Source of the DNA: Escherichia phage T7
DNA: 39,218 nucleotides
Strand: one strand, 5' to 3'
Sequence record: MZ375237.1
Shown here in pieces: positions 1 through 10,442 of this stretch; within the stretch, counting starts at the first letter, position 1, and every line of letters begins with the position of its first letter. Under the pieces are notes generated by a model. That model did not search any database, was not told where the DNA came from, and was given only the letters and a program-made list of their open reading frames with translations. Both the position numbers and the translations under genes were made by a program.

Positions 1-160
1 TCTCACAGTGTACGGACCTAAAGTTCCCCCATAGGGGGTACCTAAAGCCCAGCCAATCACCTAAAGTCAACCTTCGGTTGACCTTGAGGGTTCCCTAAGG
101 GTTGGGGATGACCCTTGGGTTTGTCTTTGGGTGTTACCTTGAGTGTCTCTCTGTGTCCCT
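1..160. repeat. Left direct terminal repeat (160 bp), identical to 39059..39218
   Basis: Window starts tctcacagtgtacggacc... and the same 160-bp block ending ...tctctgtgtccct recurs at the right end; matches T7 terminal redundancy. Confidence 0.95.
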
Positions 161-172
161 ACCTGTTACAGT

Positions 173-340
173 CTCCTAAAGTATCCTCCTAAAGTCACCT
201 CCTAACGTCCATCCTAAAGCCAACACCTAAAGCCTACACCTAAAGACCCATCAAGTCAACGCCTATCTTAAAGTTTAAACATAAAGACCAGACCTAAAGA
301 CCAGACCTAAAGACACTACATAAAGACCAGACCTAAAGAC
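173..340. repeat. Array of short imperfect CCTAAAG/ACCTAAAG-type repeats next to left terminal repeat
   Basis: Repeated ...cctaaag... units read directly (e.g. agaccagacctaaag three times); known T7 left-end short repeats. Confidence 0.8.
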
Positions 341-387
341 GCCTTGTTGTTAGCCATAAAGTGATAACCTTTAATCATTGTCTTTAT

Positions 388-410
388 TAATACAACTCAC
401 TATAGGGAGA
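388..410 (+). promoter_or_regulatory. T7 RNA polymerase promoter phiOL (+1 G at 405)
   Basis: taatacaactcactatagggaga, one mismatch to the T7 consensus. Confidence 0.85.
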
Positions 411-461
411 GACAACTTAAAGAGACTTAAAAGATTAATTTAAAATTTATCAAAAAGAGTA

Positions 462-498
462 TTGACTTAAAGTCTAACCTATAGGATACTTACAGCCA
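462..498 (+). promoter_or_regulatory. Host sigma70 early promoter A1
   Basis: -35 ttgact, 17-bp spacer, -10 gatact, start near A498; matches T7 A1. Confidence 0.85.
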
Positions 499-588
499 TC
501 GAGAGGGACACGGCGAATAGCCATCCCAATCGACACCGGGGTCAACCGGATAAGTAGACAGCCTGATAAGTCGCACGAAAAACAGGTA

Positions 589-626
589 TTGACAACATGA
601 AGTAACATGCAGTAAGATACAAATCG
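589..626 (+). promoter_or_regulatory. Host sigma70 early promoter A2
   Basis: -35 ttgaca and -10 taagat with about 18-bp spacer. Confidence 0.8.
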
Positions 627-713
627 CTAGGTAACACTAGCAGCGTCAACCGGGCGCACAGTGCCTTCTAGGTGACTTAAGCGCACCACGGCACATAAGG
701 TGAAACAAAACGG

Positions 714-750
714 TTGACAACATGAAGTAAACACGGTACGATGTACCACA
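714..750 (+). promoter_or_regulatory. Host sigma70 early promoter A3
   Basis: -35 ttgaca, 17-bp spacer, -10 tacgat. Confidence 0.8.
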
Positions 751-858
751 TGAAACGACAGTGAGTCACCACACTGAAAGGTGATGCGGTCTAACGAAAC
801 CTGACCTAAGACGCTCTTTAACAATCTGGTAAATAGCTCTTGAGTGCATGACTAGCGG

Positions 859-900
859 ATAACTCAAGGGTATCGCAAGGTGCCCTTTATGATATTCACT
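859..900 (+). promoter_or_regulatory. RNase III processing hairpin R0.3
   Basis: ctcaaggg...ccctttatgat imperfect hairpin of the same family as R1.1/R1.3/R4.7/R18.5. Confidence 0.6.
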
Positions 901-924
901 AATAACTGCACGAGGTAACACAAG

Positions 925-1278
925 ATGGCTATGTCTAACATGACTTACAACAACGTTTTCGACCACGCTTACGAAATGCTGAAAGAAAACATCCGTTATG
1001 ATGACATCCGTGACACTGATGACCTGCACGATGCTATTCACATGGCTGCCGATAATGCAGTTCCGCACTACTACGCTGACATCTTTAGCGTAATGGCAAG
1101 TGAGGGCATTGACCTTGAGTTCGAAGACTCTGGTCTGATGCCTGACACCAAGGACGTAATCCGCATCCTGCAAGCGCGTATCTATGAGCAATTAACGATT
1201 GACCTCTGGGAAGACGCAGAAGACTTGCTCAATGAATACTTGGAGGAAGTCGAGGAGTACGAGGAGGATGAAGAGTAA
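925..1278 (+). CDS. 0.3: Gene 0.3 Ocr, anti-restriction DNA-mimic protein
   Basis: 117-aa highly acidic [20 protein letters not shown]...EEYEEDEE; first gene after A1-A3. Confidence 0.95.
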
Positions 1279-1409
1279 TGTCTACTACCAACGTGCAATA
1301 CGGTCTGACCGCTCAAACTGTACTTTTCTATAGCGACATGGGGCGGCGTGGCATAGACGAAAGGAAAAGGTTAAAGCCAAGAAACTCGCCGCACTTGAAC
1401 AGGCACTAG
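1278..1409 (+). pseudogene. 0.4: Truncated gene 0.4 remnant: first 21 codons fused at a deletion junction to 22 foreign codons
   Basis: ATG overlaps 0.3 stop (taATG); [21 protein letters not shown] matches gp0.4 N-terminus, then diverges after about 1341. Confidence 0.6.
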
Positions 1410-1457
1410 CCAACACACTGAACGCTATCTCATAACGAACATAAAGGACACAATGCA

Positions 1458-2537
1458 ATGAACATTACCGACATCATGAACGCTATCGACGCAATCAAAG
1501 CACTGCCAATCTGTGAACTTGACAAGCGTCAAGGTATGCTTATCGACTTACTGGTCGAGATGGTCAACAGCGAGACGTGTGATGGCGAGCTAACCGAACT
1601 AAATCAGGCACTTGAGCATCAAGATTGGTGGACTACCTTGAAGTGTCTCACGGCTGACGCAGGGTTCAAGATGCTCGGTAATGGTCACTTCTCGGCTGCT
1701 TATAGTCACCCGCTGCTACCTAACAGAGTGATTAAGGTGGGCTTTAAGAAAGAGGATTCAGGCGCAGCCTATACCGCATTCTGCCGCATGTATCAGGGTC
1801 GTCCTGGTATCCCTAACGTCTACGATGTACAGCGCCACGCTGGATGCTATACGGTGGTACTTGACGCACTTAAGGATTGCGAGCGTTTCAACAATGATGC
1901 CCATTATAAATACGCTGAGATTGCAAGCGACATCATTGATTGCAATTCGGATGAGCATGATGAGTTAACTGGATGGGATGGTGAGTTTGTTGAAACTTGT
2001 AAACTAATCCGCAAGTTCTTTGAGGGCATCGCCTCATTCGACATGCATAGCGGGAACATCATGTTCTCAAATGGAGACGTACCATACATCACCGACCCGG
2101 TATCATTCTCGCAGAAGAAAGACGGTGGCGCATTCAGCATCGACCCTGAGGAACTCATCAAGGAAGTCGAGGAAGTCGCACGACAGAAAGAAATTGACCG
2201 CGCTAAGGCCCGTAAAGAACGTCACGAGGGGCGCTTAGAGGCACGCAGATTCAAACGTCGCAACCGCAAGGCACGTAAAGCACACAAAGCTAAGCGCGAA
2301 AGAATGCTTGCTGCGTGGCGATGGGCTGAACGTCAAGAACGGCGTAACCATGAGGTAGCTGTAGATGTACTAGGAAGAACCAATAACGCTATGCTCTGGG
2401 TCAACATGTTCTCTGGGGACTTTAAGGCGCTTGAGGAACGAATCGCGCTGCACTGGCGTAATGCTGACCGGATGGCTATCGCTAATGGTCTTACGCTCAA
2501 CATTGATAAGCAACTTGACGCAATGTTAATGGGCTGA
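1458..2537 (+). CDS. 0.7: Gene 0.7 Ser/Thr protein kinase, host shutoff
   Basis: 359-aa [20 protein letters not shown]... with very basic C-terminal region; matches gp0.7. Confidence 0.93.
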
Positions 2538-2544
2538 TAGTCTT

Positions 2545-2595
2545 ATCTTACAGGTCATCTGCGGGTGGCCTGAATAGGTACGATTTACTAACTGG
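2545..2595 (+). promoter_or_regulatory. Intergenic region expected to hold RNase III site R1 and minor host promoter C
   Basis: Placed by collinearity with T7; hairpin not resolved confidently by eye. Confidence 0.35.
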
Positions 2596-2607
2596 AAGAG
2601 GCACTAA

Positions 2608-5259
2608 ATGAACACGATTAACATCGCTAAGAACGACTTCTCTGACATCGAACTGGCTGCTATCCCGTTCAACACTCTGGCTGACCATTACGGTGAGCGT
2701 TTAGCTCGCGAACAGTTGGCCCTTGAGCATGAGTCTTACGAGATGGGTGAAGCACGCTTCCGCAAGATGTTTGAGCGTCAACTTAAAGCTGGTGAGGTTG
2801 CGGATAACGCTGCCGCCAAGCCTCTCATCACTACCCTACTCCCTAAGATGATTGCACGCATCAACGACTGGTTTGAGGAAGTGAAAGCTAAGCGCGGCAA
2901 GCGCCCGACAGCCTTCCAGTTCCTGCAAGAAATCAAGCCGGAAGCCGTAGCGTACATCACCATTAAGACCACTCTGGCTTGCCTAACCAGTGCTGACAAT
3001 ACAACCGTTCAGGCTGTAGCAAGCGCAATCGGTCGGGCCATTGAGGACGAGGCTCGCTTCGGTCGTATCCGTGACCTTGAAGCTAAGCACTTCAAGAAAA
3101 ACGTTGAGGAACAACTCAACAAGCGCGTAGGGCACGTCTACAAGAAAGCATTTATGCGAGTTGTCGAGGCTGACATGCTCTCTAAGGGTCTACTCGGTGG
3201 CGAGGCGTGGTCTTCGTGGCATAAGGAAGACTCTATTCATGTAGGAGTACGCTGCATCGAGATGCTCATTGAGTCAACCGGAATGGTTAGCTTACACCGC
3301 CAAAATGCTGGCGTAGTAGGTCAAGACTCTGAGACTATCGAACTCGCACCTGAATACGCTGAGGCTATCGCAACCCGTGCAGGTGCGCTGGCTGGCATCT
3401 CTCCGATGTTCCAACCTTGCGTAGTTCCTCCTAAGCCGTGGACTGGCATTACTGGTGGTGGCTATTGGGCTAACGGTCGTCGTCCTCTGGCGCTGGTGCG
3501 TACTCACAGTAAGAAAGCACTGATGCGCTACGAAGACGTTTACATGCCTGAGGTGTACAAAGCGATTAACATTGCGCAAAACACCGCATGGAAAATCAAC
3601 AAGAAAGTCCTAGCGGTCGCCAACGTAATCACCAAGTGGAAGCATTGTCCGGTCGAGGACATCCCTGCGATTGAGCGTGAAGAACTCCCGATGAAACCGG
3701 AAGACATCGACATGAATCCTGAGGCTCTCACCGCGTGGAAACGTGCTGCCGCTGCTGTGTACCGCAAGGACAAGGCTCGCAAGTCTCGCCGTATCAGCCT
3801 TGAGTTCATGCTTGAGCAAGCCAATAAGTTTGCTAACCATAAGGCCATCTGGTTCCCTTACAACATGGACTGGCGCGGTCGTGTTTACGCTGTGTCAATG
3901 TTCAACCCGCAAGGTAACGATATGACCAAAGGACTGCTTACGCTGGCGAAAGGTAAACCAATCGGTAAGGAAGGTTACTACTGGCTGAAAATCCACGGTG
4001 CAAACTGTGCGGGTGTCGATAAGGTTCCGTTCCCTGAGCGCATCAAGTTCATTGAGGAAAACCACGAGAACATCATGGCTTGCGCTAAGTCTCCACTGGA
4101 GAACACTTGGTGGGCTGAGCAAGATTCTCCGTTCTGCTTCCTTGCGTTCTGCTTTGAGTACGCTGGGGTACAGCACCACGGCCTGAGCTATAACTGCTCC
4201 CTTCCGCTGGCGTTTGACGGGTCTTGCTCTGGCATCCAGCACTTCTCCGCGATGCTCCGAGATGAGGTAGGTGGTCGCGCGGTTAACTTGCTTCCTAGTG
4301 AAACCGTTCAGGACATCTACGGGATTGTTGCTAAGAAAGTCAACGAGATTCTACAAGCAGACGCAATCAATGGGACCGATAACGAAGTAGTTACCGTGAC
4401 CGATGAGAACACTGGTGAAATCTCTGAGAAAGTCAAGCTGGGCACTAAGGCACTGGCTGGTCAATGGCTGGCTTACGGTGTTACTCGCAGTGTGACTAAG
4501 CGTTCAGTCATGACGCTGGCTTACGGGTCCAAAGAGTTCGGCTTCCGTCAACAAGTGCTGGAAGATACCATTCAGCCAGCTATTGATTCCGGCAAGGGTC
4601 TGATGTTCACTCAGCCGAATCAGGCTGCTGGATACATGGCTAAGCTGATTTGGGAATCTGTGAGCGTGACGGTGGTAGCTGCGGTTGAAGCAATGAACTG
4701 GCTTAAGTCTGCTGCTAAGCTGCTGGCTGCTGAGGTCAAAGATAAGAAGACTGGAGAGATTCTTCGCAAGCGTTGCGCTGTGCATTGGGTAACTCCTGAT
4801 GGTTTCCCTGTGTGGCAGGAATACAAGAAGCCTATTCAGACGCGCTTGAACCTGATGTTCCTCGGTCAGTTCCGCTTACAGCCTACCATTAACACCAACA
4901 AAGATAGCGAGATTGATGCACACAAACAGGAGTCTGGTATCGCTCCTAACTTTGTACACAGCCAAGACGGTAGCCACCTTCGTAAGACTGTAGTGTGGGC
5001 ACACGAGAAGTACGGAATCGAATCTTTTGCACTGATTCACGACTCCTTCGGTACCATTCCGGCTGACGCTGCGAACCTGTTCAAAGCAGTGCGCGAAACT
5101 ATGGTTGACACATATGAGTCTTGTGATGTACTGGCTGATTTCTACGACCAGTTCGCTGACCAGTTGCACGAGTCTCAATTGGACAAAATGCCAGCACTTC
5201 CGGCTAAAGGTAACTTGAACCTCCGTGACATCTTAGAGTCGGACTTCGCGTTCGCGTAA
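2608..5259 (+). CDS. 1: Gene 1, T7 RNA polymerase
   Basis: 883-aa ORF MNTINIAKNDFSDIELAAIPFNTLADHYGERLAREQLALEHESYEMGEARFRKMFERQ... ending ...SDFAFA. Confidence 0.98.
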   Translation: MNTINIAKNDFSDIELAAIPFNTLADHYGERLAREQLALEHESYEMGEARFRKMFERQLKAGEVADNAAAKPLITTLLPKMIARINDWFEEVKAKRGKRPTAFQFLQEIKPEAVAYITIKTTLACLTSADNTTVQAVASAIGRAIEDEARFGRIRDLEAKHFKKNVEEQLNKRVGHVYKKAFMRVVEADMLSKGLLGGEAWSSWHKEDSIHVGVRCIEMLIESTGMVSLHRQNAGVVGQDSETIELAPEYAEAIATRAGALAGISPMFQPCVVPPKPWTGITGGGYWANGRRPLALVRTHSKKALMRYEDVYMPEVYKAINIAQNTAWKINKKVLAVANVITKWKHCPVEDIPAIEREELPMKPEDIDMNPEALTAWKRAAAAVYRKDKARKSRRISLEFMLEQANKFANHKAIWFPYNMDWRGRVYAVSMFNPQGNDMTKGLLTLAKGKPIGKEGYYWLKIHGANCAGVDKVPFPERIKFIEENHENIMACAKSPLENTWWAEQDSPFCFLAFCFEYAGVQHHGLSYNCSLPLAFDGSCSGIQHFSAMLRDEVGGRAVNLLPSETVQDIYGIVAKKVNEILQADAINGTDNEVVTVTDENTGEISEKVKLGTKALAGQWLAYGVTRSVTKRSVMTLAYGSKEFGFRQQVLEDTIQPAIDSGKGLMFTQPNQAAGYMAKLIWESVSVTVVAAVEAMNWLKSAAKLLAAEVKDKKTGEILRKRCAVHWVTPDGFPVWQEYKKPIQTRLNLMFLGQFRLQPTINTNKDSEIDAHKQESGIAPNFVHSQDGSHLRKTVVWAHEKYGIESFALIHDSFGTIPADAANLFKAVRETMVDTYESCDVLADFYDQFADQLHESQLDKMPALPAKGNLNLRDILESDFAFA

Positions 5260-5267
5260 CGCCAAAT

Positions 5268-5290
5268 CAATACGACTCACTATAGAGGGA
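5268..5290 (+). promoter_or_regulatory. T7 promoter phi1.1A (+1 at 5285)
   Basis: caatacgactcactatagaggga. Confidence 0.85.
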
Positions 5291-5335
5291 CAAACTCAAG
5301 GTCATTCGCAAGAGTGGCCTTTATGATTGACCTTC
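5291..5335 (+). promoter_or_regulatory. RNase III site R1.1
   Basis: ctcaaggtcattcgcaagagtggcctttatgat hairpin. Confidence 0.7.
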
Positions 5336-5342
5336 TTCCGGT

Positions 5343-5365
5343 TAATACGACTCACTATAGGAGAA
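5343..5365 (+). promoter_or_regulatory. T7 promoter phi1.1B (+1 at 5360)
   Basis: taatacgactcactataggaga. Confidence 0.9.
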
Positions 5366-5443
5366 CCTTAAGGTTTAACTTTAAGACCCTTAAGTGTTAA
5401 TTAGAGATTTAAATTAAAGAATTACTAAGAGAGGACTTTAAGT
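5366..5443. other. AT-rich segment of the primary replication origin
   Basis: ttaattagagatttaaattaaagaattactaag AT-rich tract just after phi1.1A/phi1.1B; T7 primary origin lies here. Confidence 0.6.
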
Positions 5444-5572
5444 ATGCGTAACTTCGAAAAGATGACCAAACGTTCTAACCGTAATGCTCGTGACTTCGAG
5501 GCAACCAAAGGTCGCAAGTTGAATAAGACTAAGCGTGACCGCTCTCACAAGCGTAGCTGGGAGGGTCAGTAA
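5444..5572 (+). CDS. 1.1: Gene 1.1, small basic protein of unknown function
   Basis: 42-aa ORF MRNFEKMTKRSNRNARDFEATKGRKLNKTKRDRSHKRSWEGQ; below ORF-track cutoff. Confidence 0.8.
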   Translation: MRNFEKMTKRSNRNARDFEATKGRKLNKTKRDRSHKRSWEGQ

Positions 5573-5573
5573 G

Positions 5574-5831
5574 ATGGGACGTTTATATAGTGGTAATCTG
5601 GCAGCATTCAAGGCAGCAACAAACAAGCTGTTCCAGTTAGACTTAGCGGTCATTTATGATGACTGGTATGATGCCTATACAAGAAAAGATTGCATACGGT
5701 TACGTATTGAGGACAGGAGTGGAAACCTGATTGATACTAGCACCTTCTACCACCACGACGAGGACGTTCTGTTCAATATGTGTACTGATTGGTTGAACCA
5801 TATGTATGACCAGTTGAAGGACTGGAAGTAA
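5574..5831 (+). CDS. 1.2: Gene 1.2, inhibitor of host dGTPase
   Basis: MGRLYSGNLAAFKAATNKLFQ...; start chosen 2 nt after 1.1 stop with gggaggg RBS. Confidence 0.88.
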   Translation: MGRLYSGNLAAFKAATNKLFQLDLAVIYDDWYDAYTRKDCIRLRIEDRSGNLIDTSTFYHHDEDVLFNMCTDWLNHMYDQLKDWK

Positions 5832-5851
5832 TACGACTCAGTATAGGGACA
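5829..5851 (+). promoter_or_regulatory. T7 promoter phi1.3 (+1 at 5846)
   Basis: taatacgactcagtatagggaca; its TAA is the gene 1.2 stop. Confidence 0.85.
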
Positions 5852-5895
5852 ATGCTTAAGGTCGCTCTCTAGGAGTGGCCTTAGTCATTTAACCA
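5852..5895 (+). promoter_or_regulatory. RNase III site R1.3
   Basis: cttaaggtcgctctctaggagtggccttagtcat hairpin. Confidence 0.65.
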
Positions 5896-5911
5896 ATAGG
5901 AGATAAACATT

Positions 5912-6991
5912 ATGATGAACATTAAGACTAACCCGTTTAAAGCCGTGTCTTTCGTAGAGTCTGCCATTAAGAAGGCTCTGGATAACGCTGGGTATCTTAT
6001 CGCTGAAATCAAGTACGATGGTGTACGCGGGAACATCTGCGTAGACAATACTGCTAACAGTTACTGGCTCTCTCGTGTATCTAAAACGATTCCGGCACTG
6101 GAGCACTTAAACGGGTTTGATGTTCGCTGGAAGCGTCTACTGAACGATGACCGTTGCTTCTACAAAGATGGCTTTATGCTTGATGGGGAACTCATGGTCA
6201 AGGGCGTAGACTTTAACACAGGGTCCGGCCTACTGCGTACCAAATGGACTGACACGAAGAACCAAGAGTTCCATGAAGAGTTATTCGTTGAACCAATCCG
6301 TAAGAAAGATAAAGTTCCCTTTAAGCTGCACACTGGACACCTTCACATAAAACTGTACGCTATCCTCCCGCTGCACATCGTGGAGTCTGGAGAAGACTGT
6401 GATGTCATGACGTTGCTCATGCAGGAACACGTTAAGAACATGCTGCCTCTGCTACAGGAATACTTCCCTGAAATCGAATGGCAAGCGGCTGAATCTTACG
6501 AGGTCTACGATATGGTAGAACTACAGCAACTGTACGAGCAGAAGCGAGCAGAAGGCCATGAGGGTCTCATTGTGAAAGACCCGATGTGTATCTATAAGCG
6601 CGGTAAGAAATCTGGCTGGTGGAAAATGAAACCTGAGAACGAAGCTGACGGTATCATTCAGGGTCTGGTATGGGGTACAAAAGGTCTGGCTAATGAAGGT
6701 AAAGTGATTGGTTTTGAGGTGCTTCTTGAGAGTGGTCGTTTAGTTAACGCCACGAATATCTCTCGCGCCTTAATGGATGAGTTCACTGAGACAGTAAAAG
6801 AGGCCACCCTAAGTCAATGGGGATTCTTTAGCCCATACGGTATTGGCGACAACGATGCTTGTACTATTAACCCTTACGATGGCTGGGCGTGTCAAATTAG
6901 CTACATGGAGGAAACACCTGATGGCTCTTTGCGGCACCCATCGTTCGTAATGTTCCGTGGCACCGAGGACAACCCTCAAGAGAAAATGTAA
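5912..6991 (+). CDS. 1.3: Gene 1.3, ATP-dependent DNA ligase
   Basis: 359-aa ORF with ligase adenylation motif EIKYDGVRG. Confidence 0.95.
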   Translation: MMNIKTNPFKAVSFVESAIKKALDNAGYLIAEIKYDGVRGNICVDNTANSYWLSRVSKTIPALEHLNGFDVRWKRLLNDDRCFYKDGFMLDGELMVKGVDFNTGSGLLRTKWTDTKNQEFHEELFVEPIRKKDKVPFKLHTGHLHIKLYAILPLHIVESGEDCDVMTLLMQEHVKNMLPLLQEYFPEIEWQAAESYEVYDMVELQQLYEQKRAEGHEGLIVKDPMCIYKRGKKSGWWKMKPENEADGIIQGLVWGTKGLANEGKVIGFEVLLESGRLVNATNISRALMDEFTETVKEATLSQWGFFSPYGIGDNDACTINPYDGWACQISYMEETPDGSLRHPSFVMFRGTEDNPQEKM

Positions 6992-6995
6992 TCAC

Positions 6996-7030
6996 ACTGG
7001 CTCACCTTCGGGTGGGCCTTTCTGCGTTTA
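6996..7030 (+). terminator. Early terminator TE for host RNA polymerase
   Basis: GC-rich hairpin ggctcaccttcgggtgggcc followed by tttctgcgttt. Confidence 0.85.
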
Positions 7031-7041
7031 TAAGGAGACAC

Positions 7042-7064
7042 TTTTACGACTCACTAAAGGAGGT
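7042..7064 (+). promoter_or_regulatory. T7 promoter phi1.5, variant with TTT at -17..-15 (+1 at 7059)
   Basis: tttTACGACTCACTAAAGGAGG; core -14..+6 intact, upstream AT-rich triplet altered by the deletion junction. Confidence 0.75.
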
Positions 7065-7071
7065 ACACACC

Positions 7072-7161
7072 ATGATGTACTTAATGCCATTACTCATCGT
7101 CATTGTAGGATGCCTTGCGCTCCACTGTAGCGATGATGATATGCCAGATGGTCACGCTTAA
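7072..7161 (+). CDS. 1.5: Gene 1.5, small protein of unknown function
   Basis: 29-aa ORF MMYLMPLLIVIVGCLALHCSDDDMPDGHA behind aaggagg RBS. Confidence 0.8.
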   Translation: MMYLMPLLIVIVGCLALHCSDDDMPDGHA

Positions 7162-7181
7162 TACGACTCACTAAAGGAGAC
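7159..7181 (+). promoter_or_regulatory. T7 promoter phi1.6 (+1 at 7176)
   Basis: taatacgactcactaaaggagaca; TAA is the gene 1.5 stop. Confidence 0.88.
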
Positions 7182-7186
7182 ACTAT

Positions 7187-7447
7187 ATGTTTCGACTTCA
7201 TTACAACAAAAGCGTTAAGAATTTCACGGTTCGCCGTGCTGACCGTTCAATCGTATGTGCGAGCGAGCGCCGAGCTAAGATACCTCTTATTGGTAACACA
7301 GTTCCTTTGGCACCGAGCGTCCACATCATTATCACCCGTGGTGACTTTGAGAAAGCAATAGACAAGAAACGTCCGGTTCTTAGTGTGGCAGTGACCCGCT
7401 TCCCGTTCGTCCGTCTGTTACTCAAACGAATCAAGGAGGTGTTCTGA
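7187..7447 (+). CDS. 1.6: Gene 1.6, unknown function
   Basis: 86-aa [24 protein letters not shown]... Confidence 0.85.
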
Positions 7448-8029
7448 TGGGACTGTTAGATGGTGAAGCCTGGGAAAAAGAAAACCCGCCAGTACAAGCA
7501 ACTGGGTGTATAGCTTGCTTAGAGAAAGATGACCGTTATCCACACACCTGTAACAAAGGAGCTAACGATATGACCGAACGTGAACAAGAGATGATCATTA
7601 AGTTGATAGACAATAATGAAGGTCGCCCAGATGATTTGAATGGCTGCGGTATTCTCTGCTCCAATGTCCCTTGCCACCTCTGCCCCGCAAATAACGATCA
7701 AAAGATAACCTTAGGTGAAATCCGAGCGATGGACCCACGTAAACCACATCTGAATAAACCTGAGGTAACTCCTACAGATGACCAGCCTTCCGCTGAGACA
7801 ATCGAAGGTGTCACTAAGCCTTCCCACTACATGCTGTTTGACGACATTGAGGCTATCGAAGTGATTGCTCGTTCAATGACCGTTGAGCAGTTCAAGGGAT
7901 ACTGCTTCGGTAACATCTTAAAGTACAGACTACGTGCTGGTAAGAAGTCAGAGTTAGCGTACTTAGAGAAAGACCTAGCGAAAGCAGACTTCTATAAAGA
8001 ACTCTTTGAGAAACATAAGGATAAATGTT

Positions 8030-9137: not shown

Positions 9138-9557
9138 GTGGAACTGCGGGAGAAAATCCTTGAGCGAATCAAGGTGACTTCCTCTGGGTGTTGGGAGTGG
9201 CAGGGCGCTACGAACAATAAAGGGTACGGGCAGGTGTGGTGCAGCAATACCGGAAAGGTTGTCTACTGTCATCGCGTAATGTCTAATGCTCCGAAAGGTT
9301 CTACCGTCCTGCACTCCTGTGATAATCCATTATGTTGTAACCCTGAACACCGTTCCATAGGAACTCCAAAAGAGAACTCCACTGACATGGTAAATAAGGG
9401 TCGCTCACACAAGGGGTATAAACTTTCAGACGAAGACGTAATGGCAATCATGGAGTCCAGCGAGTCCAATGTATCCTTAGCTCGCACCTATGGTGTCTCC
9501 CAACAGACTATTTGTGATATACGCAAAGGGAGGCGACATGGCAGGTTACGGCGCTAA
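9138..9557 (+). CDS. 2.8: Gene 2.8, HNH-endonuclease-like protein (GTG start)
   Basis: HNH-type motif HSCDNPLCCNPEH; clear paralog of gene 7.7. Confidence 0.85.
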   Translation: MELREKILERIKVTSSGCWEWQGATNNKGYGQVWCSNTGKVVYCHRVMSNAPKGSTVLHSCDNPLCCNPEHRSIGTPKENSTDMVNKGRSHKGYKLSDEDVMAIMESSESNVSLARTYGVSQQTICDIRKGRRHGRLRR

Positions 9558-9987: not shown

Positions 9988-10442
9988 TGGCTCGTGTACA
10001 GTTTAAACAACGTGAATCTACTGACGCAATCTTTGTTCACTGCTCGGCTACCAAGCCAAGTCAGAATGTTGGTGTCCGTGAGATTCGCCAGTGGCACAAA
10101 GAGCAGGGTTGGCTCGATGTGGGATACCACTTTATCATCAAGCGAGACGGTACTGTGGAGGCAGGACGAGATGAGATGGCTGTAGGCTCTCACGCTAAGG
10201 GTTACAACCACAACTCTATCGGCGTCTGCCTTGTTGGTGGTATCGACGATAAAGGTAAGTTCGACGCTAACTTTACGCCAGCCCAAATGCAATCCCTTCG
10301 CTCACTGCTTGTCACACTGCTGGCTAAGTACGAAGGCGCTGTGCTTCGCGCCCATCATGAGGTGGCGCCGAAGGCTTGCCCTTCGTTCGACCTTAAGCGT
10401 TGGTGGGAGAAGAACGAACTGGTCACTTCTGACCGTGGATAA
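9987..10442 (+). CDS. 3.5: Gene 3.5, lysozyme (amidase) and RNA polymerase inhibitor
   Basis: 151-aa MARVQFKQRESTDAIFVHCSATKPSQNVGVREIRQWHKEQGWLDVGYHFII... Confidence 0.95.
   Translation: MARVQFKQRESTDAIFVHCSATKPSQNVGVREIRQWHKEQGWLDVGYHFIIKRDGTVEAGRDEMAVGSHAKGYNHNSIGVCLVGGIDDKGKFDANFTPAQMQSLRSLLVTLLAKYEGAVLRAHHEVAPKACPSFDLKRWWEKNELVTSDRG

Follow-up and report, generated by a model that had tools for sequence, protein, structure and literature searches.

A 563/564-bp early-region deletion at an imperfect direct repeat in a laboratory genome of bacteriophage T7

Introduction

How did a laboratory genome of bacteriophage T7 come to lose most of the small genes between 0.3 and 0.7, and what does the loss leave behind? 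The question is raised by sequence record MZ375237.1, the whole of which (39,218 bp) is referred to here as the window. Deletions in the T7 early region have been known since the 1970s, and they have been described as 'typical in other adaptations of T7'. The products of this region include Gp0.4, a 51-residue FtsZ inhibitor with a predicted helix-turn-helix, and Gp0.6, an inhibitor of MreB, and its RNA contains R0.5, a known and efficiently processed RNase III site. A sequence-only reading of the window had proposed that a block of 563 bp was missing from this region and that the loss was tolerated because the early genes concerned are dispensable; the literature on T7 early-region deletions agrees with the latter point. 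The finding is real and ordinary, as the exact junction is already present in at least 31 GenBank records. What we add is modest in each case, and consists of a correction of the deletion size to 564 bp, an imperfect-repeat basis for the junction, and a sister allele.

Alignment with the T7 reference

With respect to overall organization, BLAST resolves the window into three collinear blocks on the T7 reference V01146 (39,937 bp) at 99.6-99.98% identity, with the T7 terminal repeat at both ends. The blocks, each located by BLAST and by base-by-base comparison, are as follows.

Window 1-1341: collinear block 1, reference 1-1341
Window 1341-7044: collinear block 2, reference 1904-7607
Window 7045-39218: collinear block 3, reference 7764-39937

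The base-by-base comparison shows that the window differs from V01146 by 14 substitutions and two deletions and is otherwise collinear with it. Apart from the two deletions, T162C, A405G and A3721G are the sole differences within reference 1-7607, and between reference 405 and 3721 the only difference is the early-region deletion itself. This deletion removes reference 1342-1904 (equally 1341-1903), a gap of 563 bp that both BLAST and the base-by-base comparison reproduce as originally proposed, and the junction region cannot be aligned collinearly with V01146 without it.

Window 1341..1342, no strand: deletion junction, reference 1341 joined to 1905, or 1340 to 1904

The ambiguity in this join amounts to one G. 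Specifically, the left-hand match stops and the right-hand match (offset 563) begins at the same base, window 1341, which is the single shared G that the sequence-only reading had noted. That reading was correct on the shared base but overlooked a 12-nt imperfect direct repeat at the junction. The whole deleted block falls within the interval that runs from the start of gene 0.3 up to gene 1, and promoters A1-A3 as well as gene 1 are intact. Moreover, 41 separately deposited genomes contain the junction (31 identical to the window and 10 with the sister allele), and it is therefore not an assembly artefact.

In terms of size, the reference itself requires a correction. Modern T7 differs from V01146/NC_001604 by an extra A at 1897 (AAGGAACAAG against AAGGACAAG), which is found both in AY264774 and in the undeleted isolate T7_10S (MZ375234). 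Because this position falls inside the lost block, the event took 564 bp from its real parent.

Genes lost, truncated and kept

The genes and signals around the junction are listed below.

Window 925..1278, + strand: gene 0.3 (ocr), intact, 117 aa, from the ORF list, with no differences from V01146
Window 1278..1409, + strand: chimeric 43-aa ORF, Gp0.4 residues 1-21 followed by 22 residues (GRRGIDERKRLKPRNSPHLNRH)
Window 1341..1457, + strand: kept stretch upstream of gene 0.7, reference 1904-2020, 117 nt without mismatches, including the 0.7 ribosome-binding region
Window 1458..2537, + strand: gene 0.7 (protein kinase / host shut-off), intact, 359 aa, with no substitutions relative to the reference

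Gene 0.4 starts at 1278, where it overlaps the gene 0.3 stop, and matches the reference up to codon 21 (ATG, M21 at 1338-1340). From window 1341/1342 the sequence is that of reference 1904/1905 onward (GGCGGCGTGGCATAGACGAAAGG...). The break after codon 21 had been recognized from the sequence alone, and the end of the reference match at window 1341 agrees with it. According to the V01146 annotation, the losses comprise codons 22-51 of gene 0.4, all of genes 0.5 and 0.6A, and most of 'possible gene 0.6B'; minor E. coli promoter B (reference 1514) also lies inside the lost block. The right breakpoint is located 117 nt upstream of gene 0.7, within 'possible gene 0.6B', the last 68 nt of which are kept. 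Thus the earlier view that genes 0.5 and 0.6A/B were removed holds for 0.5 and 0.6A, both of which lie inside reference 1342-1904, but not for 0.6B, which is only truncated. The start of gene 0.7 is found at window 1458 as opposed to 2021 in the reference, a shift that had likewise been anticipated and that the ORF list and the base comparison both confirm.

The tail of the 43-aa ORF (GRRGIDERKRLKPRNSPHLNRH) is the C-terminus of 'possible 0.6B' as annotated in V01146. An in-frame fusion of 0.4 to 0.6B was considered for this ORF and rejected, as it is in frame only against V01146. In a parent carrying the extra A at 1897, the natural ORF runs from 1781 to 1999 and occupies another frame at the site of the 43-aa ORF's tail. 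Since the extra A shifts the parental frame, the 43-aa ORF is a by-product of the deletion and not a meaningful protein fusion, and the C-terminus of 'possible gene 0.6B' in V01146 is probably not the natural one.

With 21 residues left, Gp0.4 is very probably inactivated. As judged from gene content, the phage lacks Gp0.4 (the FtsZ inhibitor), Gp0.5 and Gp0.6 (the MreB inhibitor) and keeps Ocr and the Gp0.7 kinase. The junction occurs in plaque-purified isolates from about transfer 30-40 up to transfer 300, which implies that the deletion phage is viable. A genotype of this kind could serve studies of small host-takeover proteins or of early mRNA processing.

Loss of the RNase III site R0.5

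The sequence-only reading had also placed R0.5 among the losses. Consistent with this, the intergenic hairpin between genes 0.4 and 0.5 (reference 1428-1479) lies inside the deleted block and is lost in the window. This segment has a folding energy of -25.4 kcal/mol (z -2.85 versus shuffles), and its fold, a long stem interrupted by an internal loop, has the form typical of T7 RNase III sites. Support for R0.5 was drawn from folding because neither the T7 early region nor its RNase III sites are represented by a family in Rfam; these sites are likewise unannotated in V01146 and AY264774. Across the new junction, window 1279-1470 shows no significant RNA structure (z +0.22), and a scan of the junction region for promoters and terminators returned no motif, so that no obvious new signal appears to have been made by the join.

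With R0.5 gone, genes 0.3 and 0.7 should share one processed early RNA extending from R0.3 to R1. Taking the cleavage positions, as reported by Dunn & Studier 1983, to be ~890 for R0.3, ~1468 for R0.5 and ~3138 for R1, this 0.3-0.7 RNA should measure ~1.69 kb versus ~1.67 kb for the wild-type 0.7 mRNA.

An imperfect direct repeat and a sister allele

The join falls at the edge of an imperfect direct repeat of 12 nt, whose right copy is the one that the window retains.

Window 1341..1352: right copy of the repeat, kept, GGGCGGCGTGGC, reference 1904-1915
Reference 1341-1352: left copy of the repeat, GTGCGCTGTGGC, kept in the sister allele

Aligned in the 563 register, the copies are identical at 9 of the 12 positions, a level reached by 0.075% of the 246,051 breakpoint pairs between the end of gene 0.3 and the start of gene 0.7. 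Searching deposited T7 genomes with an 80-nt junction probe gave 31 identical matches and 10 with exactly three mismatches. Alignment of these 10 genomes revealed a deletion of the same length and register in which the left copy of the repeat stands in place of the right. This sister allele has a 5-nt perfect match, GTGGC, at its crossover.

Taken together, these features point to repeat-mediated annealing or slippage and not to blunt joining. A pair of alleles that differ only within the repeat is the product expected of annealing between repeat copies, and it illustrates, neatly if on a small scale, how imperfect repeats can mediate deletion in T7. The same pair could also be produced by slippage in two replication directions or by later conversion. 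Isolate T7_150L, which has the sister allele, carries the flanking markers of the window (A405G, A3721G and TA10071GT), and as these are common to both alleles they indicate one lineage background.

It is possible, if on balance doubtful, that both alleles are the two strands of a single post-Cas9 annealing heteroduplex at this 12-nt, 75%-identical repeat, segregated without mismatch correction. If so, T7 break repair would be able to use very short and imperfect homology, and both products would be able to persist for hundreds of transfers. The sister allele may instead represent a later conversion or a second event, since it was first sampled at transfer 150, as opposed to about transfer 30-40 for the window allele.

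Restriction to a Cas9 genome-reduction experiment

All genomes with the junction are records titled 'Mutant Escherichia phage T7 clone', namely those named T7_nL/S, with n a number (MZ3752xx), and those of the T7_5t1 type (OL9647xx). Among deposited genomes, the 80-nt probe detected the junction in no other T7 record, natural or laboratory. In the CiPGr procedure, a Cas9-based iterative genome reduction described in the text of Yuan et al. 2022 (PMC9825161), T7 went through ~300 passages on E. coli cells that contained SpCas9 and a library of plasmids. Each of these plasmids combined a spacer with a repair template of 2 x 50 bp built to delete a whole gene or 100 bp, and large and small plaques were sampled every 10 transfers. 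Clone names consisting of a transfer number followed by L or S fit this sampling of large and small plaques. From these names, the design signatures and the text of the paper, we infer that the records belong to that experiment. The place of MZ375237 in the numbering, next to T7_20S and T7_30S, suggests that the window is isolate T7_30L.

The second deletion in the window fits the same origin. It removes exactly the coding sequence of gene 1.4 (reference 7608-7763, 156 bp, ATG to stop) at window 7044|7045, with no microhomology at the junction, and more than 50 of the MZ3752xx/OL9647xx genomes share it, among them isolates whose early-region deletions differ from that of the window. This is a designed edit, in keeping with the whole-gene 'cassette-gene' design described for CiPGr (PMC9825161). 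The window is thus an engineered and evolved laboratory T7 and not a natural variant, and its gene content should not be taken for natural T7 diversity.

With regard to the early-region loss, Yuan et al. list gp0.3-0.6, gp4.3-4.7 and gp19.5 as undesigned large-fragment losses from T7 that are probable CRISPR-escape events (PMC9825161). The restriction of the junction to the CiPGr series, together with this attribution by the authors, indicates that the deletion arose under Cas9 targeting of the region, as far as the link from record to paper set out above holds. Microhomology goes unmentioned in the main text of PMC9825161, and where that text treats these losses it reports neither breakpoints nor junction alleles, which we determine here. 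In sequence terms, 55 of the 67 candidate SpCas9 (NGG) sites within reference 1279-2020 are removed, including all of those in 0.5 and 0.6A; these are candidate sites and not the actual spacers.

Other substitutions in the window

At window 405 (reference A405G), the annotated +1 position of the T7 promoter phiOL is altered, so that TATA-A-GGAGA becomes TATA-G-GGAGA and matches the start of the consensus T7 promoter. This change is shared by the window, T7_40S, T7_150L, T7_150S and T7_5t1, all of which have the 563-bp deletion with either allele. Neither T7_30S nor T7_40L has the change, which may be an adaptation or may simply have hitch-hiked. The substitution at window 3158 (reference 3721 A>G) produces Q184R in gene 1 (T7 RNA polymerase) and is also found in T7_40S, T7_40L, T7_150L and T7_150S but not in T7_30S.

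Two further changes concern regions outside the early genes. At window 9352-9353 (reference 10071-10072, TA>GT), codon 72 of gene 2.8 changes from CTA to CGT (L>R), as it also does in T7_150L and T7_150S. Whichever strand is read, the altered bases fall in the PAM-proximal seed of a possible protospacer (AGG at 10078-10080; CCT at 10069-10071), and so the change looks like a CRISPR-escape point mutation. At window 38887 (reference 39606 C>A), an intergenic base to the right of gene 19.5 is substituted. In the same short stretch, some siblings have lost 180 bp (reference 39429-39608, with an overlap of 9 nt) and others show a cluster of substitutions (39572, 39590-39592), which suggests Cas9 pressure to the right of gene 19.5 (compare the gp19.5 large fragment listed in PMC9825161).

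The remaining missense changes are the following.

Window 15330: gene 5, R566H
Window 19087: gene 7.3, R91H
Window 23966: gene 11, A153E
Window 25524: gene 12, T468A
Window 32300: gene 16, G809S
Window 33453: gene 16, A1193V
Window 34544: gene 17, K214E
Window 35542: gene 17, N546K

Each of the five sibling genomes compared has A153E, G809S, A1193V and K214E, and four of them have T468A, so that the parental stock may already have differed from V01146 at these five positions. R91H is common to the window, T7_40S and T7_30S only, and only the window has R566H and N546K. At window 161-162, where the 160-bp terminal repeat ends on its inner side, the window has T162C whereas T7_40S and T7_150S have A161C, and these changes may reflect end assembly rather than real mutations. 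T7_150L and T7_150S have an 18-bp deletion in the left terminal repeat (reference 99-116, GGGTTGGGGATGACCCTT), which the window does not have; a shift of ~18 bp like that in these two isolates is also seen in many later records.

Mechanism and rival explanations

We consider it likely that the window is a CiPGr laboratory T7 mutant whose deletion formed through pairing of the 12-nt imperfect repeats, probably by annealing after a Cas9 cut, and then spread. In this scheme, the copies at reference 1341-1352 and 1904-1915 would pair in the 563-bp register. The likely route would be a Cas9 cut inside 0.4-0.6, resection of the ends and annealing of the exposed repeats, with replication slippage as the alternative. 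In the resulting heteroduplex each strand would bear a different copy, left or right, and the two strands would separate at the next replication; the window would descend from a product that retained the right copy. Spread would follow because the deletion strips most Cas9 targets in 0.4, 0.5 and 0.6 and so escapes further cutting, and better growth in rich medium after loss of early-region DNA may have been an added driver. Two features of the locus count against this explanation: the window allele has no more than 1 nt of perfect microhomology, and the interval contains a better repeat, the 10-nt CAATGGCACA at 1369/1822, that went unused. Early-region deletions also appear and spread without Cas9, so that neither the origin nor the spread of this one need involve it.

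The last point is the starting place for the main rival, a spontaneous deletion of the classical Studier type that arose by slippage at short repeats and was enriched by faster growth in rich medium, with Cas9 uninvolved. The H1 deletion (1256-2735), spontaneous in origin, occurs in T7_20L, T7_20S and T7_30S of the same experiment, and the perfect GTGGC at its crossover makes the sister allele read as a direct slippage product. Slippage to the window allele, however, would need extension past a mismatch at the penultimate base of the primer. The junction is also absent from T7 records outside the CiPGr series despite the many evolved T7 genomes deposited, the deletion takes out 55 of the 67 candidate Cas9 sites, and Yuan et al. 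count the gp0.3-0.6 losses among the events that they regard as probable CRISPR escape (PMC9825161). On this evidence, we view a purely spontaneous origin as unlikely.

That the same genome has an exact designed deletion of gene 1.4, and that 50-bp homology arms were supplied for every targeted gene (PMC9825161), might suggest that the early-region deletion was itself a designed CiPGr edit, introduced by homologous recombination with a plasmid-borne template. Yet the designs that the paper describes remove a whole gene or 100 bp, whereas the 563/564-bp block spans several genes, from codon 22 of gene 0.4 to the inside of the ORF upstream of 0.7, and corresponds to no annotated CDS boundary and no 100-bp unit. 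Two alleles that differ inside the repeat would also be unexpected from a single synthetic template, and we regard a designed edit as very improbable. An assembly or sequencing artefact, or a natural strain polymorphism of T7, could appeal to the fact that V01146 disagrees with modern T7 at one or more single bases in this very region (the extra A at 1897). Such a reading is scarcely credible for a junction that is common to 41 separately assembled genomes and found in no natural or other laboratory T7 record, the more so as T7_10S, an isolate of the same experiment, still has the region undeleted.

Comparison with known systems

Repeat-associated loss in this region extends beyond the window's own deletion. 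In T7_20L, T7_20S and T7_30S, the deletion (reference 1256/1257-2736) lies at the 13-nt repeat AGGAAGTCGAGGA and is Studier's H1. A 676-bp deletion in T7_40L lies at CTGA[C/A]CGCT, encloses the window's deletion and likewise has the right-copy base. At least three distinct deletions have therefore occurred in the early region, and a short repeat lies at every one of them.

H1, which is known to arise spontaneously in rich medium and fuses 0.3 to 0.7 between repeats of 12-13 bp (AGGAAGTCGAGG, reference 1256/2735), is the closest classical relative. It resembles the window's deletion in affecting the same non-essential class I region, in the loss of 0.4, 0.5, 0.6 and R0.5, and in its use of short direct repeats, and H1 phage are viable, recur in laboratory passage and are present among the sibling isolates. 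Nonetheless, the window's deletion is not H1. Its endpoints are 1341/1905 and genes 0.3 and 0.7 remain separate and intact, whereas H1 removes ~1.48 kb and creates an in-frame 0.3-0.7 fusion that damages both. The repeats differ as well, that of the window being imperfect (9 of 12 positions) with 1 nt of perfect overlap in the window allele. The window's breakpoints thus lie at short direct repeats, as is characteristic of early-region deletions as a class, with the qualification that the 12-nt repeat matches at 9 positions and gives this 1-nt perfect overlap. A search of the literature matched no named Studier deletion (D111) to the window's endpoints.

The undesigned gp0.3-0.6 losses described for CiPGr (PMC9825161) involve the same phage, the same region and the same kind of event, with no substantive difference from the deletion studied here, and the window appears to be one of the CiPGr genomes with an undesigned large-fragment loss. 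The deletions reported by Cunningham et al. 1997 and Tom et al. 2018 (a 2.1-kb 0.3::gene 1 fusion) are likewise instances of recurrent loss of dispensable early genes. Those deletions are larger, usually take 0.7 and part of 0.3, and arose without nuclease selection, whereas that of the window is limited to 0.4-0.6.
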